DNA of 64,000 nt from a virus (taxonomy: Duplodnaviria > Caudoviricetes): IMG/VR virus record IMGVR_UViG_2934156241_000002, positions 1 through 64,000 of that record; one strand, written 5' to 3'. Every line of letters starts with the position of its first letter. Position 1 is the stretch's first letter. Made by a program: the position numbers and the translations under genes. The notes beneath the pieces are model-generated. The model was given only the letters and a program-made list of their open reading frames with translations. It ran no database searches and was not told the DNA's origin. Positions 1 to 36,399 of the stretch are shown piece after piece.

Positions 1-831
1 TCAGATCAGGTGCGGGGCGGTGGCGAGCGCCATGTCGATGCCGATGGAACCGACGTCCGCGCAGACCCGGGTAGAGCCGGTGACGGGCGCCGCCGGATCC
101 GTATCGGGGCCGAGGCGGAGCCAGCCCTGCAGGTCCTGGTACGCGCCGAACTCGACCTCGCGGGCACTGACCGGGCGCAGCTGCGGGAACCGGTCGGCCA
201 GGTGCCGCGTGAAGACGCTCCCGGCGTCCGTGGACGTGTGGCTACCCAGCGGAGGCAGAAGGACCGGCAGAGCCCCGTACAGGCCGCTCTCGGGGCCGTC
301 GTAGGTCAGGCTGTAGTTCCCTCCGCACCCGTGCGACCACATGCCCCACTGGGCGTGGCCGTCGGCCGTCCTCCACACCAGGCCGGGCCCGTCGTGCAGC
401 TCAACGAACTGCGGGAGCGCCCCGTGGTCGACGAGGCCGAACGCGACCTCGGTCAGAGCAGCCCGCTTGTCACGGAACACCTGCTGCGCCCCGTGCTCGA
501 CGGCCGTCCCGGCAGTGGTCTCCGCGTCCAGGGTCGGGAGTATCCAGCGCAGCACGCGGGCAGCGAGCCAGGCGACGGATGCCGGGTCCGTCGAGTCGGT
601 CACGGCGTCCGGGGTGACGGGGAACTCGTCAGGCCGGGCGGCGAACACCTCAACGAGTCCGGCCTGCTCGGCGATGATCAGCGTCCGGCGGCCGTCGGTG
701 ATCTGGGACGTGGCCGCGTTGTTGCGGATGCTGTACGGGGCCGGGCGGACCTGCCACGCCTTCCCCTGGCAGGTGGGGAGCAGCGCGGCGAGCGGGGCGG
801 CGGTGGTCGCGTGGGCGGTGGGCAGGGACAT
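1..831 (-). CDS. hypothetical protein (276 aa)
   Basis: ATG at 831 follows the GAAGGAACACC leader; stop at 1-3. Confidence 0.75.
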   Translation of the reverse strand: MSLPTAHATTAAPLAALLPTCQGKAWQVRPAPYSIRNNAATSQITDGRRTLIIAEQAGLVEVFAARPDEFPVTPDAVTDSTDPASVAWLAARVLRWILPTLDAETTAGTAVEHGAQQVFRDKRAALTEVAFGLVDHGALPQFVELHDGPGLVWRTADGHAQWGMWSHGCGGNYSLTYDGPESGLYGALPVLLPPLGSHTSTDAGSVFTRHLADRFPQLRPVSAREVEFGAYQDLQGWLRLGPDTDPAAPVTGSTRVCADVGSIGIDMALATAPHLI

Positions 832-953
832 CAGCGGTGTTCCTTCGTTCGGGCGTTCCCGGCGCGGTGCTCTCCGGCCGGGTGATGAGGTCATGCCGGT
901 GGTGCTTACGTCGCGCCCCGGGGCCGGCTGGAAGGTGCGGCCCCGGGGGCGGG

Positions 954-1214
954 TCAGTCGGTGATCGGCTCGAATCCGTGCACCTTGTCGATCAGGTCGG
1001 TTCCCTCGTCGCGGACGTACTCCTCGTACGTGCGCTGAACGGCATGGCGGTGAACGTCGACGTCGAAGGTGGCGGCCCACGCCATGCCGTCGGTGTCGTC
1101 CTGGTCATCGACGTAGCCGTCGATCATGGCTTCGTCGCCGTCCCCGACGTCGTGGGACGCTTCGATCAGAAGGTTCCCGCCGTGGTCCCAGCGGCCCATC
1201 AGCAGCGTTGCCAT
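954..1214 (-). CDS. small acidic hypothetical protein
   Basis: AAGGAG RBS before ATG (MATLLMGRW...). Confidence 0.7.
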   Translation of the reverse strand: MATLLMGRWDHGGNLLIEASHDVGDGDEAMIDGYVDDQDDTDGMAWAATFDVDVHRHAVQRTYEEYVRDEGTDLIDKVHGFEPITD

Positions 1215-1294
1215 CAGGGGTGCTCCTTGTCTGGTGAGGGGTGGTGCTGCACCCCGGAGCGGCTCGTACGGCCGGGCCCCGGGGTGCAGCTGCT

Positions 1295-1645
1295 CTACAG
1301 TCCGAGGGACAGCACGAACAGGGCGAGGTCGCCGCCCCACTCGGCCATCTCGTCCGGGTTGCTCGGCGAGAAGTCGGGGATGTGCTCGGAGGGCACGAGG
1401 TGCACGTCGCCGGTAGCGCGGTCCTCGAACACCAGGTCCCCGAGGTCGCCGTCGGTGTCGACGTACAGGCGCAGCGACACGCGGCCGTCGGTGGTGAAGA
1501 TCAGGCCCCATGCGCCGAGGTAGGACGATTCGGCGTCCCAGCCCTTGCCGAGGGCGGCGGCCGTCGCGCGGGCGTAGTCGGAGAGGGGGTAGCTGTACTC
1601 GCGGCCGGGGGCGGGGTTGTACCGGGCGGGGGTGGTGGTGGTCAT
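1295..1645 (-). CDS. hypothetical protein
   Basis: ATG after hairpin leader (MTTTTPARYNP...). Confidence 0.75.
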   Translation of the reverse strand: MTTTTPARYNPAPGREYSYPLSDYARATAAALGKGWDAESSYLGAWGLIFTTDGRVSLRLYVDTDGDLGDLVFEDRATGDVHLVPSEHIPDFSPSNPDEMAEWGGDLALFVLSLGL

Positions 1646-1740
1646 CGCGGGTGTTCCTTCGGTTCGGGTCGGGTCCGGCGTGCTCTCGCCGGGGGAGTAG
1701 GCCGGGTGAGCGCGGCTTGCGTCGCGCCCACCCGGAGCGG

Positions 1741-2262
1741 TCAGCCGATGGAGTCGGCCAGTTGGGCGTGCTCCCACAGGAGGCGGAACGCCGCTTCCAG
1801 GAGGGCCGTGACGTCCTCTTCGAGGGGCGCAGCGTTGAGCTGGGCGTGGACGGCGAGGAGGCGGACGAACAGGTCGCCTTCCTGGGCGATCAGGACGGGT
1901 CCGCCGGGGAGCAGTGAGGCGGGCAGCTCCGGAGCGGTGCCGTACACCGGGGCGGTGACGTACAGGCTGACCAGAGGCGGGAAGCCGGTGGAGGGCGTCT
2001 GGGCGGCGATGTCGTCGATGGTGTGCATGGCGAGCATCGCGTCGAAGGGCAGCGTGTTAGTGATGACGGTGCCGTCCCACGTGCCGGATTCCTCGGTCTC
2101 CAACGCTGTGGCGGCGTCGTTGAGGAGTGCGGCGATGTCGAGGAGCGCGGTGCGGCCGGGGGCGTCCGGGATGGTCGCGGGGGACTCGGCGCGGGTCCGG
2201 GCGATGCCGGCGATGGTGCGGGCGCGGCGGGCGGCGGCGATGGCGGTCTGCGGGATGGGCAT
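1741..2262 (-). CDS. hypothetical protein (173 aa)
   Basis: GGAG RBS; co-oriented with neighbours; protein-like composition. Confidence 0.7.
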   Translation of the reverse strand: MPIPQTAIAAARRARTIAGIARTRAESPATIPDAPGRTALLDIAALLNDAATALETEESGTWDGTVITNTLPFDAMLAMHTIDDIAAQTPSTGFPPLVSLYVTAPVYGTAPELPASLLPGGPVLIAQEGDLFVRLLAVHAQLNAAPLEEDVTALLEAAFRLLWEHAQLADSIG

Positions 2263-2340
2263 GGGTGTCTCCGTCTACGTGTGCGTTGAGGGGGCCGGGG
2301 CGCGGCAGGGGGTGCTGCGCCCCGGCGGGGGCGGGGAGGG

Positions 2341-2727
2341 TCAGGCGGCCAGGAGGGCGGCGCGGACGGCCTTGTACTCGGCCTTGCGCGGCTTGTACGC
2401 GGCGGCGAGCTGGGCGACCTCGGTCCGGGTGTAGCGGAAGACGGTCTTGACGATGTTCCGGGTGCCGGTGAGGGAGCGGCGGATGCGGGCGCGGCGGCCC
2501 TTGATGCCCGCGTTCTTCGCTGCGGTGCGCAGTCCGGCGGAGACGGCCTTGATGGCGGTGTCGGTGTGGGTGCCGGTGGCGATGATGTGCGTGGCCAGGG
2601 AGCGGGCGCCGGTGCGGACACGGCGGGCGGCCTGGGCGATGCTTCGGCGCTTGGCGGAGGCGGCGCGGTTGGTGCGGATGCGGTCGCGGAGGATGGCGGC
2701 GGCGCGGCGGGCGTTGGCAGAAGCCAT
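2341..2727 (-). CDS. very basic Arg/Ala/Lys-rich protein, possibly nucleic-acid binding
   Basis: ATG after full box + hairpin leader (MASANARRAAAILRDRIRTN...). Confidence 0.75.
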   Translation of the reverse strand: MASANARRAAAILRDRIRTNRAASAKRRSIAQAARRVRTGARSLATHIIATGTHTDTAIKAVSAGLRTAAKNAGIKGRRARIRRSLTGTRNIVKTVFRYTRTEVAQLAAAYKPRKAEYKAVRAALLAA

Positions 2728-2905
2728 GATGGGTTCCTTCGTTCGGGCGGTGTGGGCGGTGCTCTCCGCCAACAAGAGAAACAGTACAGCAATGCGACAC
2801 TCAGGGATAGGGGCACCCGAAAAGATCGGGAAAATGCTGGTCAGTTGTGCACTCAGCACCTGATCCAGGCGCATCAATGTCGCGCAGCTTCACTGTCGGT
2901 AGGTG

Positions 2906-3142
2906 TCAGAAGAGGGTCAGGGTGTCCGCAGGAGGCATCGGGGCCGGCATGGCGGTGCGCGGCCGCCGGGGGGCCGGAGCGTCCCCGAACAGGGCCTCAG
3001 TGCCGCACTCGTCCGGAACGGCCGGCACGGACCGGACCACAGCCTCTTCCCCGATCAGAGCGAGCGGGGCCAGCTGTGCGGCCTCGTCGAAGTCGGCGCG
3101 CTCCATGCGCGTCCAGTCACGGCCGACCCGCCCCCCGGTCAC
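2906..3142 (-). CDS. hypothetical protein
   Basis: GTG overlaps the stop of the upstream ORF (GTGA). Confidence 0.5.
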   Translation of the reverse strand: MTGGRVGRDWTRMERADFDEAAQLAPLALIGEEAVVRSVPAVPDECGTEALFGDAPAPRRPRTAMPAPMPPADTLTLF

Positions 3143-3324
3143 AGCCGCTCGCCGACCAGCTGGACGACGGGGCGCCGGAACGCATCCCCGGGTGCGAGCA
3201 GCCACGCACCGTGCGCGTCACAGAACGCCTCGGTGCGCCTCACACGCCCCCTGGAGAGGTCGTACGAGATGAAGCGCGTCGGCGGGTACGGGCACGTTGC
3301 ACAGCGGTCCGGGATCTCGGGCAT
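3139..3324 (-). CDS. small Cys/His-containing protein (CxxC...CxxH)
   Basis: GAGGAA RBS; MPEIPDRCATCP...FCDAH. Confidence 0.55.
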   Translation of the reverse strand: MPEIPDRCATCPYPPTRFISYDLSRGRVRRTEAFCDAHGAWLLAPGDAFRRPVVQLVGERL

Positions 3325-3392
3325 CGGTACGGGGTTCCTCTCTGGCGGACGGCCGGGGCGCGGGCGGCGCGCCCCGGCCAGGGGCGGAAGGA

Positions 3393-4025
3393 TCAGGCGC
3401 GGCGGGCGTGCGCCCGGTACTCAGCGTCCAGGGCCCGCAGCGCGTCGGCGAACTCGGGGGTGCCGGGCTTCTCGTCGAGGTCGCGGACCATGGCAGCGCC
3501 CGCCGGAAGGTCGACCTTCGACCCGTCCAGGTTCGTCCATCCGTACGCCGGACGGCTGACTACCGTCACGCAGAGCGTGGTGACGTCACCGGCACCCCGG
3601 CACTCGTCGGGGAGCGCCGCCGCAGCTCCGCACTGGCGGTTGCCCATCGTGGCGCAGTCCCAGCCGGTTTCGTCTTCGTCGACCACACCGTCTCGGTTGT
3701 CGTCGCCGCGAGCATCGGACTGGCCATCAACCCAGCCGTCCGCCCACGCGACCGCGCCCGGGTCGTTGCCGTTGGCGACGAAGGGCGGGGCGGTCGCCTT
3801 CATGCCGTCGCCGAGCGCAGCGACGCCAGCGTTCCACCCGCCGTTGTAGGCATCGACCAAGACCGCATCCTCCGCGTCGGCGGTGATGGTGGCGGTCGGG
3901 TGGTGCGGGGCCGGCATGGAGTGGCCGGTGAGGGTGGCGCCAGCGCCGAGGAGTGCGGTGGCCAGGCCAGCGGCCAGCAGCACGGCGGGGCGGGGGCGGC
4001 GGGTGAGGATTCGCGGCATACGCAT
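3393..4025 (-). CDS. secreted or membrane-anchored protein with an EF-hand-like loop
   Basis: Basic then hydrophobic N-terminus; DDNRDGVVDEDE loop; four Cys; hairpin leader. Confidence 0.7.
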   Translation of the reverse strand: MRMPRILTRRPRPAVLLAAGLATALLGAGATLTGHSMPAPHHPTATITADAEDAVLVDAYNGGWNAGVAALGDGMKATAPPFVANGNDPGAVAWADGWVDGQSDARGDDNRDGVVDEDETGWDCATMGNRQCGAAAALPDECRGAGDVTTLCVTVVSRPAYGWTNLDGSKVDLPAGAAMVRDLDEKPGTPEFADALRALDAEYRAHARRA

Positions 4026-4114
4026 GGCGGTGTTCCTTCGTTCGGGCTGTTCCGGGTTGCTCTCCCCGGGGTGCCGGTTGGCGTGGAACAGAACGTACAG
4101 ACACCACACGTAAA

Positions 4115-4227
4115 AGTACAGCGATGCGACGGATTATGAGTGAGTCCACTGTTCACAGGGCCATCCACCTGCGCATTCACGAAGATGCCACTTCCCCTCT
4201 TGCGCTCCTGTCGCATTGCTGTACTGT
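4115..4227. promoter_or_regulatory. divergent control region with two oppositely oriented GTCGCATYGCTGTACT boxes
   Basis: AGTACAGCGATGCGAC at 4115-4130 and GTCGCATTGCTGTACTGT at 4210-4227 lie between leftward and rightward gene arrays. Confidence 0.75.
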
Positions 4228-4296
4228 TCTTCTCGGCGGTTCACCCCGCCGCCCCGGAGAGCAACCGGGGCAAGCCCGAACGAAGGAACACCCACC

Positions 4297-4587
4297 ATGG
4301 CCGTCACACTCGCCAAAACCCCCCAACTCCACTTCTTCCTTGCTGTCGTCAGCAACCAGGGCACCGACTCCGCCCACGTCCACGCACTGCTGCTCACCCG
4401 CCAGAACGGCTACGCCAACCAAGTCGACCTGATGCACCTTCAGGCCCGAGCCGTCAACGGCGGCGAACTGGTCTGCATCGTCGCCGGAGACCGCTCCGCC
4501 GCCTACGCCGATGCACGCCAGGGCGAATGCAACGAAGAGCTCATGACCGCCTGGATCGACCAGCAGATCACCGCCCACGGCCTGTAG
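4297..4587 (+). CDS. hypothetical protein (96 aa)
   Basis: ATG after hairpin leader (MAVTLAKTPQLHFF...). Confidence 0.75.
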   Translation: MAVTLAKTPQLHFFLAVVSNQGTDSAHVHALLLTRQNGYANQVDLMHLQARAVNGGELVCIVAGDRSAAYADARQGECNEELMTAWIDQQITAHGL

Positions 4588-4723
4588 GCCACGCACCGCC
4601 CGCCACCACGGGGGGGGGTGCGCCCCGCCCCCTCACCGGCCAGCCCGGTGCAGGCGCAGGGCGCACCGCCCCACCCCCACCCCGGGAGAGCACCCGGGAC
4701 AGCCCGAACGAAGGAACACCGCC

Positions 4724-5359
4724 ATGACCACTGCCCCCGCCCCGACCACTACCGCACCGCTGTTCGCCGCGCTCGCCGCGCACCAGGCCGCTGACGAAGC
4801 CGCCCTGGGCCTCCGTCAGCTCGACCTGTACGCGCTCGGCCGCCACCTGCACGGGCTCGGCGCCACCAACGCTCTTGCCTCCGTGGAGGACGGGCGCTAC
4901 GCCCTCGCCTCCGCCCGCAACCTGCGGGACCGCGCAGCCGCCAACCTCCTGGTGCGCGCCGCCATCGACACGGCTCGGAGCGCCATCCTCACCATCGCGC
5001 CGCACGCCGCCCGCATGCACGGCACGGACCTGCCCGCGACCGCCGAGGAGATCCGCGCCGCAGCACTGGCGTACAACGACATCGACGGCTCCCACGAGGA
5101 ACTGAGCGACATCAAGGCCGGCACGCCCTCCGTCCGCGTCCACTGCCGCAGCGACACCGGCACCGGATGGACCGTGATCGCGGTCATCACCGCCGGGGTT
5201 GACTCACGGTTCGGGCACATCCCCGCCCATCCTCCGATCATCGTGAAGTTCCGCAAGATCGACGGGCGCCTGAACGCTGCCGAGAACGCCCGCCGGGTGT
5301 TCGGCGCCCGGTTCCGCGTCGACGTCCCCGTGACGTACGTCGCCGACCGCCGGGTCTGA
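4724..5359 (+). CDS. hypothetical protein (211 aa)
   Basis: ATG after hairpin leader. Confidence 0.75.
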   Translation: MTTAPAPTTTAPLFAALAAHQAADEAALGLRQLDLYALGRHLHGLGATNALASVEDGRYALASARNLRDRAAANLLVRAAIDTARSAILTIAPHAARMHGTDLPATAEEIRAAALAYNDIDGSHEELSDIKAGTPSVRVHCRSDTGTGWTVIAVITAGVDSRFGHIPAHPPIIVKFRKIDGRLNAAENARRVFGARFRVDVPVTYVADRRV

Positions 5360-5529
5360 CCCCTGGCCCCGGGGCCGCCCGGCCGAACGGGGTCGGGCGG
5401 CGCCGCAGGACCCCACACGCACACGCGCGCGTGTGAGCGGTCCAGAAAGTCCAGAAACCCCCGCCCGCCCCTCTTGCTTCACCCCCTGCCCCGGAGAGCA
5501 CCGGGGCCCGCCCGAACCGAAGGAACACC

Positions 5530-6717
5530 GTGCTTACTGCTACTCAGCGCGCCGAACACATGGCGCAGCAGGTCTTGATTTCCGCCCGCCTCCACAACTC
5601 CATGGTGGTCACGGCCGATCTGGTGGATGCCGTGATGGGCCGTGATGTCGGCACGGAGCAGGGGAAGGCGGATGTGGCCACGGTGCGCCGCATCATCCGC
5701 AAGCGCGCCGGGGCTGAGGGGGTGCGGGTCATCCTCACGGAGACGGAGCGGTACTGGGCGATCCGGGAGCAGCTTCACGGCCTGCACAAGGACCAGGTGG
5801 ACGACCTTGCTGACAGCATTGCCGCCGGGGGAGACGACGACCCGCGCGGGTGGGACGCCGAGCTGATCAAGGCGCTCTCCGTCCGCCGGTCCGGGCGGAT
5901 TCCACCGGAGCGGCTGTGGGGCTGCGAGCCGGTCTCCGTCCGTTTGTGGAGTGAGCCGCGTTCGGCCGAGGAGGAGTGGCCGACGGCGGCCGAGGCGCAG
6001 CGTCTGGCCGGCAACGAGGTCATTGCCGGTCGGGCCCGTGCGGCACTTGCCCTGCGGCATATCGGTGAGGCGCAGCAGGGGGTTGCCGGTGTCCGGTTCC
6101 ACGTGGATGCGCGGGCCGTGCTGCTGTACGCCGTGGACTACCGGGGTTGGTCCACGCCGGTGCTTCTGGAGTACTTCGGCGGGGCCCTGGAGGAGAGCGG
6201 GTGGACCACGATGCGTGGAATCAGCGTTCGCGGGTCGTACCTGCGGTTGCTGCCGCCCGTCGAGGAGGTTCCCGCCCCGGCCGAGCGCACGTGGGCCGAG
6301 GTCCTGGGCGCGGACCCGATCCCGGCTGGGGAGCCCGTTCTCACCACCATGCCGGGTCGGCCGGTCACCGTTGAAGCCCTGGGGACGGGCCCGGAGACGG
6401 TGCTCGCCCATGAGGAGTACGTGGTCCAGCTCCGGAGCAACGGCAGGTGGGTGCTGCCGAACCATGACGATCCGGCCGTGCTCTCCCGGTCGGTGGTCGC
6501 CAGGGTGCGACGCCGGATGCTGGAGGGCGCTCCCGGGCGCTCAGGGGCTTCCCTGGACGTCGACGGGACGGTCTACCTGTCCGACGGCCGACAGGCCGCC
6601 CGGTACATCCCCACGGGGCTTCTGAGTGGTCTTCAGCCCGGGGTGTGCCCGGGGTGCAGCACCGCGTACGCCGACAACGGTGACGGTCCCTGCCCGACCG
6701 AGGCGCGCCCGGCCTGA
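5530..6717 (+). CDS. hypothetical protein (395 aa) with C-terminal CxxC...C
   Basis: GTG after hairpin leader. Confidence 0.7.
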   Translation: MLTATQRAEHMAQQVLISARLHNSMVVTADLVDAVMGRDVGTEQGKADVATVRRIIRKRAGAEGVRVILTETERYWAIREQLHGLHKDQVDDLADSIAAGGDDDPRGWDAELIKALSVRRSGRIPPERLWGCEPVSVRLWSEPRSAEEEWPTAAEAQRLAGNEVIAGRARAALALRHIGEAQQGVAGVRFHVDARAVLLYAVDYRGWSTPVLLEYFGGALEESGWTTMRGISVRGSYLRLLPPVEEVPAPAERTWAEVLGADPIPAGEPVLTTMPGRPVTVEALGTGPETVLAHEEYVVQLRSNGRWVLPNHDDPAVLSRSVVARVRRRMLEGAPGRSGASLDVDGTVYLSDGRQAARYIPTGLLSGLQPGVCPGCSTAYADNGDGPCPTEARPA

Positions 6718-6720
6718 CGC

Positions 6721-6762
6721 CGATGGCACCGCCCGGCCGGCCTGGCGCGGGCGGTGCCATCG
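6721..6762 (+). terminator. stem-loop, probable terminator
   Basis: CGATGGCACCGCCCG...CGGGCGGTGCCATCG 15-bp inverted repeat right after the stop. Confidence 0.6.
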
Positions 6763-6850
6763 AGCACCCGTCACACCCCTGTCTCCCCCTGCATCTCGGC
6801 GTACCGGCCCGCACTGGCCCCGTACGCCGCTCCGAGGAAGGTTCATCCCC

Positions 6851-7213
6851 ATGTCTCTGCCGTCCTGGCTCCAGTCCCACCTGGACGCCGCCGCACAGCC
6901 CCGGTACTCGTTCGAGTCGTTCGCGGACGAGGTGGCCCGCCGGATGGGTCTGCCCCCGACGTTGGTCACCGGCGAGTTCGAGCGGAGCTCCGAAACCGAT
7001 CACGTCTGGATGGTGTGGAAGTCCGACCGGGGCGGAGCGATCCTCCTGCTGGACAGGGGAGACGCTGCTCCGCGTGAGTCCGTGGTCATCAAGGTGTGTT
7101 GGCACCAGGCGCCGGACCCGGGCGACGTCGCCGCGATGGTCCGGGCGTACGAGCGTCGCGGCCGTCTCCGTCCTCTGCGGTCGTTGCTGGCCCGGGTGCT
7201 GCGTCGCGGCTGA
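6851..7213 (+). CDS. hypothetical protein
   Basis: GGAAGG RBS; MSLPSWLQSHL... Confidence 0.65.
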   Translation: MSLPSWLQSHLDAAAQPRYSFESFADEVARRMGLPPTLVTGEFERSSETDHVWMVWKSDRGGAILLLDRGDAAPRESVVIKVCWHQAPDPGDVAAMVRAYERRGRLRPLRSLLARVLRRG

Positions 7214-7355
7214 ACCGGGCGTCCTGCCGCCAGGCATCCACGGCGCCGCCCGTCCGAGTCGGCGGGCGGCGCCCCCTTGTTTCGGCCCGCAGTCGAGCGG
7301 GCCGACTGAACCGCGATGGCGAGCTGCCGCCGCGTCCCACAGGAAGGAACAGCGC

Positions 7356-8132
7356 GTGAGCGCATTCGTAGAGATCCCCCGCCCGTACGAGTCGGTACCG
7401 GGCCGGTTCACGGTGGAGCTCCGGTTCCCCGCAGCGTCGAAGCGCCGGGCGGAGCAGCATCACCACGTGGCTTGGCGTCTGGCCGACGTGCACGGTGTCG
7501 AGGCCCGTACCCCGTACAAGGTGAATCCGCGGTGGTCGGTGTACGAGGAGCAGTGGGGGAACGGGGAGCGGCACGGCGGTCTCGACTACCGGGGGCTGAC
7601 GGTGGAGGGCAGTGCCCGCACGGTTGCCCGGTACCTCGCGGCCCTGGTGCGGGTCCTGGAGGCGGTGGAAGGTCTGGCCACTCGGGCGGTCCGGGTGTTC
7701 GGCGCGTGGAAGCGCTCTGTGGCCGCTGAGAGCCACATGGAGCACGAGGACGTGGTCACCATGCGCATCCGGGCCCGGGACTTTCGTGCGGCCGTCCTGG
7801 GCGCCCTGGTGCGGCGCCTGGACGCACACGTGGCGGACGGGTCGGTGCGGGACAGCTCCCGGCCTCTGTGGGAGCAGCCCGGGGCCGTGGGCGCCGAGGT
7901 GTGGGCCGATGCCGGCGGGGTCGACCTGATGGAAGCCCCGGCAGAGGACGTCGCCGTGCACCTGGTCCTGATGGTGCCCGAGGAGCCGGTGCAGCAGGAG
8001 CTGTTCGCGGTCGAGGCGGTTGCCGTGCGGTTGAGGCCGGCCACGCCGTCGAGCGTGCGTACCGCCGTCTTCCCGATCCCTGTCGCCCCGCTTCTGCCAG
8101 GCGATCCCGGACGGTACGGCACGGCAGCCTGA
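7356..8132 (+). CDS. hypothetical protein
   Basis: GGAAGGAAC RBS before GTG (VSAFVEIPRPYE...). Confidence 0.7.
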   Translation: MSAFVEIPRPYESVPGRFTVELRFPAASKRRAEQHHHVAWRLADVHGVEARTPYKVNPRWSVYEEQWGNGERHGGLDYRGLTVEGSARTVARYLAALVRVLEAVEGLATRAVRVFGAWKRSVAAESHMEHEDVVTMRIRARDFRAAVLGALVRRLDAHVADGSVRDSSRPLWEQPGAVGAEVWADAGGVDLMEAPAEDVAVHLVLMVPEEPVQQELFAVEAVAVRLRPATPSSVRTAVFPIPVAPLLPGDPGRYGTAA

Positions 8133-8305
8133 TCTATCCCCGGCGTCGACAGCTCCTCGCGAGTCTCAGAACAGTGCAGCATTGAGACTCTCTAGGCCGT
8201 TACCCCCTTCCTGTGCGGGATACCTACCCTTAGACGTCTCATTGCTGTACTGTTTTTCTTGTTGGCGGAGAGCACCGCCAACAGCCCAAAGAAAGGAACA
8301 CCGCA

Positions 8306-8725
8306 ATGAACGCTGCCCTCGCAGTCAAGTCCCTGGAACTCAACTCGCTGTACGGCTCGGTACGCATCGTTCTCAGCTCCGAGACCCGGACCGACGTCAT
8401 GCCGGAGCAGGCCGACGCCTACAGCCTGAGCGTGCTCGGTGGGAAGGGGCTGCGGGAGTCCGCCATCAACGACTCCAACGGCTCCGCGGACCTGGCCATC
8501 AGGTTCGTTGAGTACATCGACCCCGTCACGCAGAAGACGCGGTACGGCGTCGACTACTGGTCGATCACCCGCTATTGGACGGTCGACCACGCATACCGCA
8601 GCGTCGCCGAGACGGTCTACGAGACGGCCGTGCGCGGGGAGTTCGCATGCCCGACGCTCACCCTCACCCGGGAGCGCTTCGCGCGGGGACTGACCGGCTT
8701 CTACGACGTCACCGACGTCATCTGA
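8306..8725 (+). CDS. hypothetical protein (139 aa)
   Basis: ATG after full box + 9-bp hairpin leader. Confidence 0.8.
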   Translation: MNAALAVKSLELNSLYGSVRIVLSSETRTDVMPEQADAYSLSVLGGKGLRESAINDSNGSADLAIRFVEYIDPVTQKTRYGVDYWSITRYWTVDHAYRSVAETVYETAVRGEFACPTLTLTRERFARGLTGFYDVTDVI

Positions 8726-8822
8726 TTTTCGGTCACTTCAGTCCCTTTCCGCCGGGGCGCGACCTTCCCGCCGCGCCCCGGCATCCTCCCCGCACCTGTC
8801 TCCACCCAGCGAAGGAACACCC

Positions 8823-9488
8823 ATGCGTACCGGCCTCACCATCACCCCGGATTCCCCGCGCTCCAACGAGATGAAGCTCATCGTCAAACTGGACAAGTCC
8901 ATGGTGGGCGTCATCTTCGACGAGTCCCTGGCCCAGCTGTCGCGTGGCGCGTTCGCCGCCTGGTCCTCGAAGTGTTCCAACCGTGGTGGCGTCGTCGGCT
9001 TCTACCCGACGCAGGAGGAGGCGGCCGAGGCCATCGCGGATCTGTACGCGGCGGCCGGCCCCGGCGGCGGCAAGACCCCGCCGTCCACCAAGAGGCAGGC
9101 CAGGTTCTTCGCACTGCCCACCGTGCGCCGTGACGCTGTCGCCCATAAGGCCGCGTACCTGTACGACGGCACCCGCACCGTGGCCGCGTGCTGGACGGTC
9201 GCGCTGGAGTGGGACGAGGGCGAGCACCCCGGGCCTGACCCGGAGACCGGTGAGCCGGTCTACGTCCGCACGCACTCCGCGACGACCCGGCACCTGCCCA
9301 ACCCCGACAAGACCGGCCGCCACACCCTGTGCGGGCAGGCGTGGCAGATCGCCTCCTGGTACCGGCACCCGAACACGCGCCAGATCCACCGCCCCGAGGG
9401 CTGGATGATCCTCGACCTCCCCGACTGCGGAGGCTGTGGCCGGTCGCACGCCGCCCGCCTGGCCCGTGCCGCGCGCACGGCCGCGTAA
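8823..9488 (+). CDS. hypothetical protein, possible Zn-binding C-terminus
   Basis: GAAGGAACACCC-ATG; HTLCG...CGGC. Confidence 0.7.
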   Translation: MRTGLTITPDSPRSNEMKLIVKLDKSMVGVIFDESLAQLSRGAFAAWSSKCSNRGGVVGFYPTQEEAAEAIADLYAAAGPGGGKTPPSTKRQARFFALPTVRRDAVAHKAAYLYDGTRTVAACWTVALEWDEGEHPGPDPETGEPVYVRTHSATTRHLPNPDKTGRHTLCGQAWQIASWYRHPNTRQIHRPEGWMILDLPDCGGCGRSHAARLARAARTAA

Positions 9489-10741: not shown

Positions 10742-11830
10742 GTGCAATCCGCGATGCTCTTCGACCTCCCCGCTCTCCAGGGCGCCCCCGTAGCCCCTAT
10801 GACGAAGAAGCCCTGCCGCCCGCGCAAAGTGCACGCGTCCGTGCCGCTCGAGCCGTCCACGACCGTCCCCGATGAGCTGATAGCCGACGCGGACTGGATC
10901 GTCGTGAACTCCAGCGGCGGCAAGGACAGTCAGGCGATGCTGACGCACGTCGTTCGCCGTGCGAAGGCCCTCGGGATGCTGGACAAGGTGGTCGTCGTCC
11001 ACGCGGACCTGGGGGACATCGAGTGGGGCGGCACGAAGACGCTCGCCGAGGAGCAGGCCCACCTTGCCGGCGTCCGACGGATCGAGGTGGTGAAGGCGAA
11101 GGGCGCCGATCTGCTCGGGCGCGTCCTGGTTCGGTTCGGCAAGCTCAAGGCCAAGGCGGAGCGAGAGGCGATCGACGCCGGCCTCGACCCGGCCGCGGTG
11201 AAGGTCGCCCCAGCCTGGCCTTCGAGCTCAGCGCGTTGGTGCACGAGTGACGTGAAGCGCGGGCCGGTCTGGACGCTGTTCACCAGGCTCACCGCGGAGC
11301 TGTCGCACCTGGGGCGGCCGGTGCGCATCCTCAACTGCATGGGCCAGCGGGCCGCCGAATCCGCTCCGAGAGCGAAGCTCGCCGAGGTGGAGATCGACCG
11401 TTCGGCGAGCAACGGCAAGCGGCACGTCACCGTATGGCGCCCGATCCATGGGTGGAGCGACGCCGAAGTGTGGCGGGAGATCGCCCGTTCCGGCCTGCCC
11501 TACCACCCGGCCTACGACTGGGGCATGCGCCGCTTGAGCTGCAGCTTCTGCGTCCTCGGATGTGAGGCCGACGTGGTGCTCGCCGCGCGGCTCCGCCCGA
11601 AGAAGGCCGCCGAGTACGCGGCCATGGAAGTCCAGGTCGGCGCCGACTTCAAGCACGGCTTGTCCATGGCCGAGATCATCCGCCGCGCCGCAGAGCTGGA
11701 GAAGGAGCAGGGCCCCGTGCGGCGGCCGCCGACCGGAACGGCGATGGCCGGGTTCATCGGCCGCTCGGCAACCGCCCTGTACCTGCGCCGCCGGGACCTT
11801 GTGCGCAACCGCCTGACGCTCGCTTCCTGA
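10742..11830 (+). CDS. PAPS reductase family (PP-loop) protein
   Basis: VVNSSGGKDS PP-loop, RWCTSDVK, GQRAAESAPRA, WRPIHGWS, RLSCSFC. Confidence 0.85.
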   Translation: MQSAMLFDLPALQGAPVAPMTKKPCRPRKVHASVPLEPSTTVPDELIADADWIVVNSSGGKDSQAMLTHVVRRAKALGMLDKVVVVHADLGDIEWGGTKTLAEEQAHLAGVRRIEVVKAKGADLLGRVLVRFGKLKAKAEREAIDAGLDPAAVKVAPAWPSSSARWCTSDVKRGPVWTLFTRLTAELSHLGRPVRILNCMGQRAAESAPRAKLAEVEIDRSASNGKRHVTVWRPIHGWSDAEVWREIARSGLPYHPAYDWGMRRLSCSFCVLGCEADVVLAARLRPKKAAEYAAMEVQVGADFKHGLSMAEIIRRAAELEKEQGPVRRPPTGTAMAGFIGRSATALYLRRRDLVRNRLTLAS

Positions 11831-23557: not shown

Positions 23558-23797
23558 CTACCGCTGCTCCCCGCCGACTCTCATCAGGAAGGTCACCTGC
23601 GGTGTCGGCTCCGTGCGCAGTACGCCGCGGCGGCGACCCCGGCGTACTGCCGAGGTGAGGGCTTCTCTGGGAAGGCCGGCCTCGCGCAGACGGCGCGAGG
23701 CCTCCGGCATGGTGATCCACTGCCCGTAGGGCAGGTCCATCAGGAAGGCGTCGATCCCTGCGGTGGGCGCGGCGGCCGACGGCGTGCTCGTGCTCAT
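23558..23797 (-). CDS. small putative DNA-binding protein (79 aa)
   Basis: Preceded by box (23873-23890), hairpin and GAAGGAAG leader. Confidence 0.65.
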   Translation of the reverse strand: MSTSTPSAAAPTAGIDAFLMDLPYGQWITMPEASRRLREAGLPREALTSAVRRGRRRGVLRTEPTPQVTFLMRVGGEQR

Positions 23798-24041
23798 CGA
23801 GGTCTTCCTTCGCTCGGGACGTCAGAGCCCACCCGGGTGCTCTCCCGGACAGGCCTGCAGGATGGCGAGATTACAGTACAGCGGTGAGACAAAGAGGCGT
23901 CCGTCGACCGGTGACCGCCGAAACATGGCCGGATATGCTGCCAAGGCGCCATAGCGGAAGACGATCTTCCTCAAATCCCCGGGATTTCAGGCCCGTCCAC
24001 GCGACGAGCGCGATCACAGGCAGCAGGGGGGACACAACGCC

Positions 24042-24719
24042 GTGACCGACAGCACAGAAACGGTTGACCAACTCATAGCGCGCGCGGCAGCAGGGGGAAC
24101 TGACGCGCCGGCAGCCATGAGCGCCTTCTACGCCCAGCTGCACTCCACCGTGCACAACTGGGTCCGCGGCTACATCCACAACCCGCACACCGCAGAGGAC
24201 CTGTCCCAAGAGGTCTGGCTCAAGGTGGCAAAGAACATCGGTCGATACCGCCCCGGCACGAACTACATGGCGTGGCTCTCGACCATCACCCACAACACCG
24301 TCGTCGACTACCTGCGGACCTCGCAGCGGCGCCCCGTCGAGGTGCTGCACGCCGATCAGCTGCAACTCGACCGGCCCCGACCGGGCCTCACCTCCCACCA
24401 GGAAGCGGAACGCCGCCTGCTCGCCCAGGCGATCGAGACGCACATGGGCAAGCTCAAGCCCGACCAACGCCGCTGCCTCCACCTGAGATTTTTCGCTGGG
24501 TGCAATCCGGCGCATACTGCTCAGATTATGGGCAAGAGCGAAGGTGCAGTGCGCACTCTCACGCTACGGTCACTGCGCAAGCTCGCGCAGGTCCTTCCGC
24601 AGGGAGATTCCTCGACCGAGCTGGTCGAGGAACTGCTGACCATCGCAGTAGGCAGAGGAAATGTTGTCGGTATTCGGGTGCAGACACGGGGAAGGGCGAC
24701 GCATGTTGCGACGCGCTGA
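24042..24719 (+). CDS. ECF sigma-70 factor, BldN-like
   Basis: Region 2 AEDLSQEVWLKV...AWLSTITHNTVVDYLR; region 4 LKPDQRRCLHLRFF...TAQIMGKSEGAVRTL. Confidence 0.88.
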   Translation: MTDSTETVDQLIARAAAGGTDAPAAMSAFYAQLHSTVHNWVRGYIHNPHTAEDLSQEVWLKVAKNIGRYRPGTNYMAWLSTITHNTVVDYLRTSQRRPVEVLHADQLQLDRPRPGLTSHQEAERRLLAQAIETHMGKLKPDQRRCLHLRFFAGCNPAHTAQIMGKSEGAVRTLTLRSLRKLAQVLPQGDSSTELVEELLTIAVGRGNVVGIRVQTRGRATHVATR

Positions 24720-26603: not shown

Positions 26604-26610
26604 ACAGCCC

Positions 26611-29492: not shown

Positions 29493-29924
29493 GGCTGGTG
29501 CGGTCCTCTCCCATGCGTTGGTACCGGCGATGGGCGAGGACTGCGAGCCCGCGGACTTCTACCGCGGCGCCCCGCCTCGCAAGCGGGACATGCCGTCATG
29601 GCCGGCCCTCGCCCGTCGCCGGGCCGGTGCTGCCTTCGTTCCGGATGGGGCAGCTCCGGGGCCTTGCCAGCTTTCGGTGACGTCACCGGAAGTAGCAGAG
29701 CCGCGACGAAAGTTAGGGTGCCGCGGGGCTTACGTCGCCCTCCCACCAACGGCGGTCTCATTGCTGTACTGTTTGTTTCGGCTGGGAGAGCGACCCAGCT
29801 ACCTGGGCCTAGGTGTAACAAAAATCGGCGGTTGTCGTACTTCCATGTGTGACGCCCCCGAGACATCCCCGCCCGGGACAAGTCCCAAACCCGGGCCGGC
29901 GTCCGGGGAAGGAAGGAACACCAC

Positions 29925-30530
29925 ATGGCGAACGACGCTGTTGAGGACACTCAGGCCGAACAGCCGGCCGGAGCGAGCCTGCTGCAAATCGGCCTGGTCG
30001 GCGCCCTGGCGCGGCTGATGACCGATCACCAGAAGACGGTCCTTACGCCGAAGACGGACGGGCCCAAGGCCCCGCTGATCAAGGGCTACGTCGAGGGTGG
30101 CCAGTCCGACCTCGTCCTCCGCGTCGGGGACGACGTGATCGGCCGGTACAAGGTGAACCTGGCGCAGCCGAAGGTCGTGGTGGACCAGGACAACGAAGCG
30201 GCTCTCAACAGGTACGCCGACCAGAACGGCGGCACTGAGGTCGTCGTCCGCCGGAACAAGAAGTGGGAAGAGAGCCTGCTCAAGTACGCCAAGTACGACG
30301 AGGACACGGGCCTGATCATCGACACCCGCAACGGTCAGATCGTGCCCGGCCTCAAGTACGCGAAGGGCGGCGACCCTACGGGCAACCTGACCTTCACGTG
30401 GGAGCAGAAGGACGTCGGGAAGAAGCGGTTGCTGCGGCTCTACGAGTCGGGGGCCCTGGACCACCTCCTCAAGGACGCCCCTGAGCTGATGGCCGGTCCC
30501 CGGCCCTCCGCCGAGGACGCCCAGCACTGA
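29925..30530 (+). CDS. hypothetical early protein (201 aa)
   Basis: GAAGGAACACC leader; upstream box (29755) and hairpin (29781). Confidence 0.8.
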   Translation: MANDAVEDTQAEQPAGASLLQIGLVGALARLMTDHQKTVLTPKTDGPKAPLIKGYVEGGQSDLVLRVGDDVIGRYKVNLAQPKVVVDQDNEAALNRYADQNGGTEVVVRRNKKWEESLLKYAKYDEDTGLIIDTRNGQIVPGLKYAKGGDPTGNLTFTWEQKDVGKKRLLRLYESGALDHLLKDAPELMAGPRPSAEDAQH

Positions 30531-32711: not shown

Positions 32712-32855
32712 ACGCCACCGCGGCGTACCGGCCCGGGAACTGACCCGCGGTGAGTACCGTCCGAGCGCCCGAGCGGAGGACGCTATATCGTTTGGTCGAC
32801 CCGGAAGGCCACGAGCATAAGCCGACCGGGAAGACCCGAACGAAGGGATGGTGTC

Positions 32856-34049: not shown

Positions 34050-34125
34050 GGCATCCTGCCCCCACCCGTACCAATGCGGCGGGCCCCCGACCAGGGTGCC
34101 CGCCGCCTGCATGATCGGACCCACC

Positions 34126-34542
34126 ATGACACCGGAGATCCTGGCCCGGATCACCGCCGCCCGTGCCGCCCGTGACCTTTCCGACCTCGCCCGGCAGGCA
34201 GTCGGCACGACAGCCGAGACGATCAGCCCCGCCGAACGCATCCGGAGCGCGCGCCGTCTCCGGAAGATGGCCAACGACCTGGTCGACCTGGTCGTCCTGG
34301 CCGAGGCCCTGGCCGGCGCCGACTGGCCCGAGATCACCGGCGCGCTGAGCCCCCGTCTGGACCCGGACACCGTGAAAGAGGAGTACGCCGAGTCGGTCGC
34401 CGAGTGGGCCGCCACGACCGAGGCCGAGGCGGAGGAAGCGGGCGCGGGGCTGGAGGACCTGGACAGCTGGTATGCCCGGCATCGCGAGGACCACGACCCT
34501 GACCTCGAGAAACCTGTCGCTGATCTGCTGAATCGGCGTTGA
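34126..34542 (+). CDS. hypothetical protein
   Basis: MTPEILARITAA...GADWPEITGAL. Confidence 0.65.
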   Translation: MTPEILARITAARAARDLSDLARQAVGTTAETISPAERIRSARRLRKMANDLVDLVVLAEALAGADWPEITGALSPRLDPDTVKEEYAESVAEWAATTEAEAEEAGAGLEDLDSWYARHREDHDPDLEKPVADLLNRR

Positions 34543-34659
34543 GTTCAGCCTTCGGGCGGGTAGAATAGTACAGCGATGAGACCGGCGAGAGCTTAAGGCT
34601 GCCGCCAGCCCATCCTCCGCGGGAGAGCAACCCGCGGAAGCCCGAACGAAGGAACCCCG

Positions 34660-36399
34660 ATGCCTGGTATCACCGCGCCTCAGCGCGAGCGCCGATCCCG
34701 GAAGCCGACCGGCCTCCCCAACCCCCCGCTGATGCTGCTCGTCGGACCGGAGAAGTCCGGGAAGAGCTACGAGGCCGCCCTCGGCACCAGCTCCGACCTG
34801 ATCGGCACGACGTACTGGATCGAGATCGGCGGGTCCGAGGGCACCGCGGACTACTACGGCCGCATTCGCGGCGCCCGGTACGAAATCGTCGAGCACAACG
34901 GCACCTACCAGGACATCCTCGACGCCGTCCGCTGGGCCATCGCACAGCCGCCCGTCAACGGCAAGCAGAACATGATCGTCGTGGACAACGGCAGCAACCT
35001 GTGGGACATGCTCAGTGACGAGCAAGCCCTCTTCGCCCGCCGCCGGGCAGTGCAGAAGGCGCAGAGGAACCGGCAGCGCAGCCCCGGCCTGGACGACCCG
35101 GTCGTCATCGACTCCGACCTGTGGAACCGTGCCAAGGACCGGTGGGGGGAGTTCCTGTGGCTGCTGCGCCGGCACTCCGGCCCGACCCTCCTGCTCGCCC
35201 GTCAGGAACTTGTCACGGCGTTCGAGAACGACAAGCCCACTCGGGACAAGACCCGCAAGATCAAGGCGGAGAAGAACCTCCCGGCCGCAGTCGACGCCAT
35301 CGTGGAACTCCACACCTTCGGCGAGGCGCACCTGACCGGCGTCCGCACTCTGCACTGGGACGTCAAGCCGGGGGAATCCGTCGGCTTCCCCGATTTCAGC
35401 GTTGACACCCTGCTGCGCCGCCTGGGATACGAGGACGCTGCTACCTCCCGGCAGGTCATCGAGTCTCGCCCGGAGGCGTACCTGCAGGAGCAGGAGCAGC
35501 GACAGGAGCAGCGACAGGGGCAGGGGCAGGGGCAGGGGCAGCAGCGCCAACAGCGGACGTCTGCGGAAACGGCGGTTGCGCCGCCAGCGCTCTCCGGAAA
35601 GCAGGCCGTAGACCTGATCCACAAGGCACACACCAACGAGTCCGACCCGGAAGCGTGCTTGCACGCTCTCCGTGAGGAGTGGGGCTTCCGCACTCTCCAG
35701 CAGATCCCGACCAAGACGAATATGTGGGGCGAACGGAACGCGGATGACCTCATCACCGTGTGCCTCACCCACATCAAAGAGGAGGCTGCGAAACGGAAGC
35801 TGACCACGAAGGGGAACCAGCCGACCGAGCCGACCGCCGCACCGGCACCGCCGGGCAAGGCCGAGCCGGCGCGCGAACACAGCGAGCCCTCAAGCACGGC
35901 TCAGACAACCGTCAGGCCGCAGGCTGAGCAGCCACCGCTGGACGAGCACGAAGCACCTCCGCCGCCGGACCCGCAGGCCGAGGAACCTTCGCCGGCCGAG
36001 ACCCCGGAGGAGACCAGTGCGGCCGAGGAGCCGCAGGACCTCCCGGCCCCGCCCCCGACGAAATCCTCGCAGCCCCGGAAGCGGGCCGCGCCGAAGTCCA
36101 TGCGAGCGGACGATCCGAAGGCGATCGCGCGCCAGGCGTTGCGCGACGAGGCCGAAGTCCAAGCCCGGGTGAAGTTTGTGACGGTGGGTGAACACCTGGG
36201 GCCGATCGAAGAGGCCGGGGACCCTGGCCTGGGAGAGCTCCGGGACTTCGTTCAGCAGCATCGGGCCGAGGTCATCGCCCTCCTCGAAGAAGCCGACGAG
36301 GGGGACCTTGCCGAGGTGTACCGCCGGGCTCCCATGCCGGATCTCGGTATCAAGCAGAAGTTCGCCCAGTACCTCGATGGTGCGCGCGCCGAACGATGA
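34660..36399 (+). CDS. P-loop ATPase, Sak4/AAA_24-like recombination protein
   Basis: LLVGPEKSGKS Walker A; MIVVDN Walker B; QG-repeat and Pro-rich linkers; hairpin leader. Confidence 0.7.
   Translation: MPGITAPQRERRSRKPTGLPNPPLMLLVGPEKSGKSYEAALGTSSDLIGTTYWIEIGGSEGTADYYGRIRGARYEIVEHNGTYQDILDAVRWAIAQPPVNGKQNMIVVDNGSNLWDMLSDEQALFARRRAVQKAQRNRQRSPGLDDPVVIDSDLWNRAKDRWGEFLWLLRRHSGPTLLLARQELVTAFENDKPTRDKTRKIKAEKNLPAAVDAIVELHTFGEAHLTGVRTLHWDVKPGESVGFPDFSVDTLLRRLGYEDAATSRQVIESRPEAYLQEQEQRQEQRQGQGQGQGQQRQQRTSAETAVAPPALSGKQAVDLIHKAHTNESDPEACLHALREEWGFRTLQQIPTKTNMWGERNADDLITVCLTHIKEEAAKRKLTTKGNQPTEPTAAPAPPGKAEPAREHSEPSSTAQTTVRPQAEQPPLDEHEAPPPPDPQAEEPSPAETPEETSAAEEPQDLPAPPPTKSSQPRKRAAPKSMRADDPKAIARQALRDEAEVQARVKFVTVGEHLGPIEEAGDPGLGELRDFVQQHRAEVIALLEEADEGDLAEVYRRAPMPDLGIKQKFAQYLDGARAER

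Follow-up and report, generated by a model that had tools for sequence, protein, structure and literature searches.

A Recurrent Leader With a Covarying Hairpin and a Fixed AGAGCA Loop at Accessory Genes of a Putative Streptomyces Phage-Plasmid

Introduction

Start-associated sequences (SAS), together with an upstream element termed ESAS, were described in Cluster K mycobacteriophages, where the available text gives their function as unknown (Pope et al., 2011; PMC3203893). The ESAS are imperfect inverted repeats of 17 bp in which the arms are conserved and the spacer varies, and because departures within the arms do not support RNA pairing the authors favored DNA-binding proteins (PMC3203893). 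In Cluster EF Microbacterium phages ten start-associated motifs have been recorded, with an upstream element described in the accessible text as “poorly conserved” save for its central hexamer GTAGAG (Jacobs-Sera et al., 2020; PMC7302621). Small hairpins also occur in the ANTAR-target RNAs of actinobacteria, which combine a loop-reading protein with translational control (Mehta et al., 2021; PMC8164766), and in the T4-type PeSL, in which a strong sigma-70-like promoter is joined to a terminating stem-loop and which mediate shuffling (Arbiol et al., 2010; PMC2839356). The subject here is a leader with an AGAGCA-loop hairpin and a fixed sequence before the start codon, found repeatedly in the first 64,000 nucleotides (the window) of a single IMG/VR virus record, IMGVR_UViG_2934156241_000002 (Duplodnaviria; Caudoviricetes). 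The whole record (G000) is 83,953 bases long with ~69% G+C and is referred to below as the window's genome.

Two further kinds of RNA element are relevant as models. The lambda-type nut site joins a boxB hairpin, read by the arginine-rich N protein, to a boxA bound by NusB/NusE, while in phage translational operators (coat-protein, Com/RegA sites) it is the hairpin loop, not the stem sequence, that is read by a phage protein.

Among named genomes, the window's genome is closest to the Streptomyces phage Gilgamesh, which is 129 kb long and grows on S. lividans, and to Streptomyces plasmids ~125-130 kb in size, CP108533.1 among them; syntenic stretches are 78-84% identical. As these are its nearest named relatives, the genome is classed on its sequence as a Streptomyces phage-plasmid-type element. 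Its first 39 kb form a non-structural half with many small open reading frames (ORFs) that lack an assigned function by a frame-specific G+C scan, Pfam and PHROG, while the structural half lies on the minus strand from 39.4 kb on. The reading favored here, at a probability of about 0.5, is that the leader is a cis-acting mRNA module of ~50 nt that tags accessory, non-structural genes, with a loop that is read by a trans-acting factor and an effect on translation and/or message stability.

Hairpin Leaders in the Window

The eleven AGAGCA-loop hairpins that had first been noticed in the window were all recovered, on the strands first assigned to them (Table 1). Most had been described as being followed by a CCGAAC(C) motif and a start codon, and in ten of the eleven the hairpin does lead into CCGAAC(C)GAAGGAAC(A)CC or a near variant, with the start codon 3-4 nt further on (nine ATG and one GTG, at 5530). 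The full unit consists of a G+C-rich stem of 5-12 bp, a loop of AGAGCA or AGAGCAA, a spacer of 3-9 nt, the linear motif CCGAAC(C)GAAGGAACACC, another 3-4 nt and the start codon, such that the Shine-Dalgarno core AAGGA contained in the linear motif lies 5-9 nt upstream of the start codon. Two hairpins proved longer than first drawn, 8260-8283 extending to 8259-8284 and 23833-23848 to 23826-23855, and partial leaders suspected near 8810 and 32835 were located at 8811-8821 and 32836-32849. Two copies were added, namely a twelfth full leader just beyond the range surveyed at first (37954-38003) and a loop-degenerate copy at 7318-7358, the orthologues of which carry the loop AGAGCAA in CP108533.1 and AGAGCAG in Gilgamesh.

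Both parts of the unit are far more frequent than expected. Allowing at most one mismatch, GAAGGAACACC has 13 matches against 0.99 expected, a number reached in none of 100 shuffles, and hairpins of at least 5 bp with a 6- or 7-nt loop beginning AGAGC number 12, against a mean of 2.1 and a maximum of 5 in 30 Markov-2 simulated genomes. By itself the hexamer AGAGCA shows only mild enrichment, with 33 occurrences where 22.4 are expected (2/100 shuffles). A covariance model (R1) was built from a seed of 24 leaders with 6-nt loops, six from the window and 18 from two relatives. Over the whole 83,953-base genome R1 gave 11 matches of 37.2-61.3 bits, five of them outside the seed, and the next matches were the ribosome-site end of a long leader at 24.0 bits (29870-29927) and a linear motif alone at 16.7 bits (8798-8825). 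No R1 match above 10 bits was found in the structural half, from 38 kb to the genome end at 83,953, which bears out the earlier remark that none had been noticed in the structural genes.

Exact matches to the linear motif CCGAACGAAGGAACACC were also sought in two public collections, and 32 of those found were flagged for an upstream AGAGC no more than 45 nt away. Of these, at least four fall in non-Streptomyces records and are chance matches without a hairpin; among the matches listed, the other titled flagged ones are Streptomyces (five flagged ones not being assignable), and the rest are IMG/VR contigs. Judged from sequence comparison, the AGAGCA-loop leader is a real, strongly supported and family-wide RNA leader motif.

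Stem Covariation Beneath a Fixed Loop

Forty-six hairpins were compiled, 12 from the window's genome and 17 each from CP108533.1 and Gilgamesh. The closing G-C pair and the AGAGC of the loop are invariant in all 46, while stem pair positions 2-6 interchange G-C, C-G, U-A and G-U. Hairpins with 6- and 7-nt loops were counted apart, as MAFFT on mixed loops misplaced the gap at the end so that the register was lost. In the 27 six-nt loops 85.8% of cells are paired as against 58.5% when shuffled, with a covariation score of 0.620 against 0.171; in the 19 seven-nt loops the corresponding values are 89.7% against 57.8% and 0.761 against 0.199. In neither class did any of 500 shuffles reach the observed score, in agreement with the original prediction that the stems covary under a fixed loop, and a shift of the 3′ partner by a single column lowered pairing to 43-53%, the range over shifts of one to three columns being 30-53% in both sets.

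A wider harvest across the fetched loci yielded 91 candidate copies, at least two of which were picked up by chance, having 3-bp stems and lacking the linear motif. These copies have 38 distinct 6-bp stems, and their loops are AGAGCA in 53, AGAGCAA in 32 and other types in six. Since AGAGC stays invariant while nearly all stem positions have changed, neither stability alone nor recent copying can explain the fixed loop. Stem positions 1-6 hold 493 Watson-Crick pairs, 22 G-U, 4 A-C and 27 other mismatches, and the excess of G-U over A-C (22 to 4) indicates that it is the sense strand that folds, most simply as mRNA. As had been claimed, every copy is oriented with the ORF downstream of it. The loop ends 29-35 nt before the start codon in 76 of the 91 copies and the last GGA lies 5-9 nt before it in 89, the start codons being ATG in 72 and GTG in 19. 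Minimum-energy folds contain the hairpin in 10 of the 11 leaders and leave the fixed sequence and the start codon mostly unpaired. By this comparison of copies, both the pairing of the hairpin on the sense strand and the sequence of its loop are demonstrably under selection.

Conservation Among Related Elements

At E<=0.001, R1 has 18 matches in CP108533.1 and 19 in Gilgamesh, 18 of these 37 being seed sequences, and in five IMG/VR relatives it has 18, 10, 11, 9 and 6. The leader is present in every relative examined (CP108533.1, Gilgamesh and all five IMG/VR relatives). The hairpin stands at the same gene families in the window's genome, CP108533.1 and Gilgamesh, for example those with ORF starts at 831, 1645, 2727 and 4297, and likewise at ORF starts 23797, 34660 and 37956 and in the long leader at 29780. 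Between orthologues of the 8306 leader a compensatory change from U-A to C-G is seen at the outer end of the stem. The linear motif of Gilgamesh differs, reading CCACGAAG-N-GAGGAACACC, while its AGAGC loop is kept, and since one has been retained where the other has changed the loop and the linear box are constrained separately.

Sampling of 151 Streptomyces species genomes gave one or more matches at E<=1e-6 in 24 and three or more, clustered in single regions or contigs, in seven. A hairpin-only model (R2) was run on one 10-Mb Streptomyces chromosome, with 150 of 16,385 first-look candidates scored, and the six best matches (29.5-33.4 bits) all lie inside an integrated element, from which it was concluded that the hairpin signal belongs to the element and not to the host. 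The best match outside it reached 26.1 bits (E 0.11) and lies in coding-like sequence. Across the diverged relatives compared, the module is demonstrably kept at orthologous genes and is specific to these elements, being absent elsewhere in a host chromosome.

These alignments also bear on the idea that the element acts as DNA, with the inverted repeat extruded as a hairpin or cruciform and used either as a structured promoter or as a joint at which gene cassettes recombine. Against Gilgamesh, the more distant of the two relatives, one conserved block (4217-4727) ends at the ATG of the 4724 gene and another (1631-1735) consists of a leader. Such block ends at leaders fit simple conservation equally well, and against CP108533.1 only one of ten block ends within 1-9000 falls within 30 nt of a leader. 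The joint for gene shuffling that had been suggested earlier is thus left weak, with several Gilgamesh blocks in its favor and the CP108533.1 block ends contrary to it. The 22 to 4 ratio of G-U to A-C, which favors folding of a single strand, and an orientation that always follows the gene likewise speak against a DNA-level role, and very little probability is given to it.

Two promoter types were tried as candidates and rejected. For a two-box promoter recognized by the element's ECF-type sigma factor, the distance from loop to linear motif is too variable, at 10-20 nt, and no conservation is seen within the ORFs beyond GGAAC. For an N4-like hairpin promoter served by a virion RNA polymerase, the giant ORF of the virion module (5,849 aa) shows methylase and SNF2-helicase matches only, and no RNA polymerase domain was found in it by a Pfam scan.

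Promoter-Like Motif and Transcriptional Context

A second conserved motif, TC(T/G)CA(T/C)(T/C)GCTGTACT, stands upstream of six hairpin leaders and is followed by GT in five of the six and by TT at 4115-4129. It is kept at the orthologous sites of CP108533.1 and takes the form TTCCA(T/G)TGGTGTACTAT in Gilgamesh. The motif does not match the sigma-70 consensus, and a consensus scan found no sigma-70-type promoter in 2700-8900. It may be a promoter of another class (e.g., with TACTGT as a -10-like box) or an operator; as a promoter it could be of the class served by the ECF-type sigma factor that the element itself encodes (24042-24719). Two further copies face away from the nearest leader (Table 1) and could drive antisense RNAs.

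The distance from the end of TACT to AGAGC is 16-17 nt at three sites in the window's genome, three in CP108533.1 and two in Gilgamesh, and elsewhere 30-32 or 51-52 nt. In the three window leaders with ATG at 2725, 8306 and 29925 the hairpin begins 5-7 nt after the TACTGT, and by the usual geometry of promoters the hairpin of the 16-17-nt class would lie at, or within a few nt of, the 5′ end of the predicted transcript. The remaining copies of the leader occupy intercistronic gaps of 48-282 nt.

Much of this arrangement could be explained without any reader. The hairpin would then be a 5′ stabilizer or insulator that blocks 5′-end-dependent RNases, either after initiation or after processing of a polycistron, and the fixed sequence a strong ribosome-binding site (RBS). 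The 5-7-nt placement after TACTGT at three leaders, the recurrence of the 16-17-nt spacing in all three genomes, and the ribosome-binding sequence that remains unpaired beside the hairpin in folds all agree with such a cassette, whose design resembles the 5′ stabilizers of Firmicutes. A stabilizer, however, needs only a stable stem and does not account for a closing pair and an AGAGC that never vary in 46 copies, and the other hairpins lie 19-46 nt after the promoter-like motif or between cistrons. A cassette of this kind is regarded as unlikely, at something like one chance in a handful.

The same context raises antitermination, in which hairpin and linear box, as in a nut site, would load a factor onto RNA polymerase to permit read-through of terminators in the accessory array. 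A hairpin with a purine-rich loop does lie beside a conserved linear box, both after promoter-like motifs and in long intercistronic gaps, and C-rich, G-poor tracts precede many of the hairpins. Yet a transcription unit can hold as many as five copies, each 29-35 nt from a start codon; the linear box holds the Shine-Dalgarno core; and no NusG/N-like protein was detected in the scanned ORFs. The region 2700-8900 has just two T-tailed, terminator-like sites (7242-7273 and 8705-8719), neither of them an AGAGCA hairpin, and none of the AGAGCA hairpins is followed by a T-tail. An antitermination role is accordingly held to be improbable.

Search for a Reader of the Loop

No RNA-binding protein family was found among the ORFs of the element by Pfam at E<=0.001 (45 ORFs), Pfam at <=0.05-0.1 (39 ORFs) or PHROGs (46 ORFs). 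The MazF/PemK toxin was considered as a reader and rejected, its gene being present in the window's genome and CP108533.1 but not annotated in Gilgamesh, which keeps the hairpins.

A host regulator has also been weighed, with the hairpin as decoy or target of an ANTAR-domain protein. The loop AGAGCA has A1 and G4, the two conserved loop positions of ANTAR targets, and frequent overlap of such targets with the RBS or start codon is reported for actinobacteria, as is the occurrence of ANTAR proteins in Streptomyces (PMC8164766). The targets described there are, however, dual stem-loops joined by a linker of 2-25 nt (PMC8164766), and the leaders have no second conserved hexaloop hairpin; the fixed sequence folds only into a 2-bp helix with a 7-8-nt loop, and that in six of 11 leaders. 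In addition, 35 of 91 loops are 7 nt long, no such hairpins were found in the host chromosome outside the element, and no ANTAR domain was detected among the scanned ORFs. A role as ANTAR target or decoy is likewise judged improbable, and marginally more so than antitermination.

The partner of the loop or of the fixed sequence might instead be another RNA, either ribosomal or trans-acting and encoded by the element. A scan for TGCTCT-loop hairpins of at least 4 bp in the window's genome, CP108533.1 and Gilgamesh, a simple scan that a bulged or distant partner could escape, returned the leaders themselves in antisense, isolated hits here and there, and a single site common to all three genomes, which lies in the sense strand of the uppS coding sequence. 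Near-matches to the linear motif on either strand are all leaders or lie inside ORFs. ARAGORN found no tRNA genes in the rest of the window's genome, in CP108533.1 or in Gilgamesh, and a Streptomyces 16S rRNA contains no TGCTCT, its longest complement to the leader consensus being 8 nt and falling on the variable part next to the start codon. Pairing with a second RNA is consequently considered as remote as a DNA-level role.

A Possible Leader Regulon

The favored reading, a cis-acting leader read in trans, may work as follows. The loop would be the recognition site of a sequence-specific trans-acting factor, for which a protein encoded by the element is the likeliest candidate. Bound at the edge of the ribosome-binding region, the factor would switch translation initiation and/or message stability of the tagged genes as one regulon, control at these steps being the most economical proposal because the loop lies ~30 nt before the start codon, beside an open ribosome-binding sequence. 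The promoter-proximal hairpins (ATG 2725, 8306 and 29925) would form the very 5′ end of the transcript and probably also guard against 5′-end-dependent decay. Such a regulon might be used to separate a plasmid or lysogenic state from lytic growth. A fuller version is offered tentatively and is itself doubtful, namely a private post-transcriptional regulon in which an element protein of no known RNA-binding family reads AGAGCA ~30 nt before the starts of 11-19 accessory genes, switching translation and stability together and so deciding between plasmid-like carriage and lytic growth.

Several observations weigh against the favored reading. That the hairpin is transcribed at all is itself a prediction, and the searches described above turned up no reader, neither an RNA-binding protein family nor an RNA with a complementary UGCUCU loop. 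Single-leader folding z-scores are unremarkable (-2.75 to +0.16), with only one of 11 leaders beating all 200 shuffles. The copies used for covariation were chosen partly by pairing (at least 3 bp), so that the percentage paired is inflated; it can be argued that the evidence is not circular, because five R1 matches lie outside the seed and the linear motif alone, used as a probe, also finds hairpins. The near-constant distance from loop to start codon, despite varied stem lengths, would also be expected from common descent of the leaders. Finally, the hairpin at 29780-29800 lies ~125 nt from its start codon, a poor fit to a strict translational operator; it has no linear motif directly after it, GAAGGAACACC following 110 nt downstream, and has an orthologous hairpin in both CP108533.1 and Gilgamesh.

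Coordinates and Neighboring Features

Table 1. Leaders, partial copies and outward-facing promoter-like motifs in the window (R1 scores in bits).
Feature	Span	Strand	Hairpin	Linear motif	Start codon and ORF	Promoter-like motif	R1
Full leader	829..882	-	858-882, 9 bp, one bulged C, AGAGCA	CCGAACGAAGGAACACC, 836-852	ATG 829-831; 276 aa (1-831)		48.7, not in seed
Full leader	1643..1692	-	1675-1692, 6 bp	CCGAACCGAAGGAACACC, 1650-1667	ATG 1643-1645; 116 aa		50.7
Leader with promoter-like motif	2725..2797	-	2755-2770, 5 bp, extendable with one mismatch	2733-2746	ATG 2725-2727; 128 aa	2783-2797	57.3
Leader with promoter-like motif	4023..4129	-	4052-4069, 5 bp, 8-nt loop GAGAGCAA, extra 5′ G	4029-4045	ATG 4023-4025; 210 aa	4115-4129	52.1, not in seed
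Leader with promoter-like motif	4211..4299	+	first hairpin with loop TTCACC, then 4251-4271, 7 bp, AGAGCAA	4276-4292	ATG 4297-4299; 96 aa	4211-4225	46.3, not in seed
Intercistronic full leader	4681..4726	+	4681-4698, 6 bp	4704-4720	ATG 4724-4726; 211 aa		61.1
Intercistronic full leader	5488..5532	+	5488-5507, 7 bp	5512-5529	GTG 5530-5532; 395 aa		55.0
Loop-degenerate copy	7318..7358	+	7318-7331, 4 bp, AGCTGC	GAAGGAACAGC, 7343-7353	GTG 7356-7358		
Outward-facing promoter-like motif, variant	8173..8187	-			faces away from 8306 leader; antisense to end of ORF 7356-8132	8173-8187, in palindrome, kept in CP108533.1	
Leader with promoter-like motif	8237..8308	+	8259-8284, 10 bp, starts 5 nt after TACTGT	variant CCAAAGAAAGGAACACC, 8286-8302	ATG 8306-8308; 139 aa	8237-8251	61.3
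Linear motif only	8811..8825	+	upstream hairpin with unrelated loop	GAAGGAACACC	ATG 8823		16.7 (8798-8825)
Leader with promoter-like motif	23795..23889	-	23826-23855, 12 bp	variant CCGAGCGAAGGAAGACC, 23801-23817	ATG 23795-23797; 79 aa, divergent from sigma-factor gene	23875-23889	47.4
Long leader, replication-type operon	29756..29927	+	29780-29800, AGAGCGA, 7 nt after TACTGT; other hairpins follow	GAAGGAACACC, 29912-29922	ATG 29925	29756-29770	24.0 (29870-29927)
Partial linear motif, no hairpin	32836..32849	+		CCGAACGAAGGGAT			
Outward-facing promoter-like motif	34567..34581	-			faces away from 34660 leader; antisense to end of ORF 34096-34542	34567-34581, kept in CP108533.1	
Full leader	34616..34662	+	34616-34638, 8 bp, AGAGCAA	34642-34658	ATG 34660-34662; 579 aa, Gilgamesh counterpart annotated AAA-ATPase		42.2, not in seed
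Full leader	37954..38003	-	37984-38000, 5 bp, AGAGCAA	CCGAACCGGAGGACC, 37964-37978	ATG 37954-37956; 163 aa		37.2, not in seed

The non-structural half encodes ParA, a ParB-like protein, SSB, a DnaC-like loader and replication-initiator-like helix-turn-helix proteins, together with the ECF-type sigma factor, a MazF/PemK pair, uppS and an endolysin. At 16394-19007(-) uppS (undecaprenyl-diphosphate synthase) is grouped with genes for a PAP2-like phosphatase and a DUF6545 membrane protein, a cluster that is kept in CP108533.1 and Gilgamesh and that represents cell-envelope lipid-carrier metabolism on a phage-plasmid. A PAPS-reductase-like protein is encoded at 10742-11830(+). Its counterpart in Gilgamesh is found close to a gene for queuine tRNA-ribosyltransferase, a hint of a DNA-modification pathway of which the window's genome may have only a part.

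A very stable 18-bp hairpin lies at 1244-1290(-) in the leader of ORF 954-1214 (-44 kcal/mol for a 96-nt piece; z -2.84); an unpaired AGAGCA precedes it, overlapping the stop codon with which the upstream ORF ends. With Rfam at E<=1 over 1-40000 the only match was a chance one to mir-995 at 1244-1292 (28 bits against a gathering score of 72), produced by this hairpin. The non-coding stretch 36400-37143 is dense in GGCGCGCC, with 10 of the window's 16 copies within 36539-37143, is bordered by a GTGACGTGACGTGAC / GTCACGTCACCTCAC inverted repeat at ~36400-36480, and may be an origin, partition or packaging site. A tRNA-Leu prediction at 36538-36627, the window's sole tRNA call, falls within this repeat region and is probably spurious, since the relatives have no tRNA genes.

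The structural half includes a portal-MuF fusion and, adjoining the portal gene, the 5,849-aa ORF at genome 62778-80327(-). Weak matches to N6-methylase, SNF2 and helicase-C fall in its first half, Pfam gives none for its C-terminal 2,924 aa, and its counterparts are 17.5 kb long in CP108533.1 and 13.9 kb in Gilgamesh (gp48); it may be an injected multi-domain anti-defence protein. An 83-aa ORF of the structural module at 61589-61840(-) has a weak match to ribosome modulation factor that is below the cut-off (PF04957, E 0.0027), and Gilgamesh has a small ORF in the syntenic position with the annotation “ribosome modulation factor”, a shared position that does not imply orthology. A candidate ribosome-directed factor is of interest in a phage with private start signals.

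Comparison With Known Systems

The AGAGCA leader had been thought not to correspond to a described motif, and Rfam 15 gave no match at the gathering score across the whole window. Literature searches on Streptomyces phage and phage-plasmid, actinophage intergenic stem-loop and start-associated themes found no description of an AGAGCA motif. In practical terms the motif marks gene starts and may aid the annotation of the small accessory ORFs of these elements, while a leader of ~50 nt could serve as a compact expression part for Streptomyces. The system is tractable, in that the phage Gilgamesh is cultured on S. lividans and a natural loop variant exists at 7318-7331.

The original prediction had likened the leaders to T4 PeSL cassettes and to Cluster K start-associated sequences. 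The former comparison fails on the defining features. Both are small repeated stem-loop cassettes among non-essential accessory genes (PMC2839356), but the AGAGCA hairpin is downstream of a promoter-like motif and upstream of an RBS and has no T-tail, and no sigma-70-type promoter was found in 2700-8900.

Like ANTAR-target RNAs, the leaders combine a short stem, a position near the RBS and a loop with A1 and G4, which holds for AGAGCA in 53 of 91 copies and for the 35 of 91 with 7-nt loops. They differ in having a single hairpin instead of a dual hexaloop, and only the leader at 4211-4299 has an adjacent upstream hairpin, with the loop TTCACC. With nut sites and phage translational operators they share a small RNA hairpin beside a linear conserved box or RBS, but each operon has many copies, the RBS itself forms the purine-rich linear box, and the scanned ORFs yielded no matching protein.

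Cluster K start-associated sequences are an apt comparison and, of the systems described, the nearest. The SAS are reported to be asymmetric conserved sequences at the RBS position, a few nt before mostly ATG starts, with 11-19 copies per genome in one orientation and only in the non-structural half (PMC3203893). They also have an extra upstream element at about half of the sites and are kept at genes of the same family across relatives (PMC3203893). The leaders share with the SAS, which stand 3-8 nt before the start codon, the RBS position, the single orientation and the restriction to non-structural genes, and 11 of the 13 GAAGGAACACC-type sites in the window lie directly before starts. The sequences themselves differ, the Cluster K consensus GGGATAGGAGCCC with at most two mismatches having five matches against 2.0 expected, none at AGAGCA leaders. 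Decisively, the hairpins do not follow the ESAS pattern, since the arms of the AGAGCA leaders vary with compensation while the loop is fixed.

The upstream element of Cluster EF has variable flanks around a conserved hexamer (PMC7302621), the pattern expected of a fixed loop with free stems. Its sequences (one match to the EF consensus against 2.7 expected), its host and its phage group are different, and the accessible text reports no hairpin or covariation (PMC7302621); by analogy, the Cluster EF ESAS may be the same architecture, unrecognized. In actinobacteriophages, start-associated sequences have been on record since 2011 with no mechanism given (PMC3203893), and a clean covarying hairpin turns them into a testable problem of an RNA and its reader. 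Given that long record, the AGAGCA leader is not categorically new but is of the start-associated-sequence kind, to which it adds, as a new feature, a covarying hairpin with a fixed loop.

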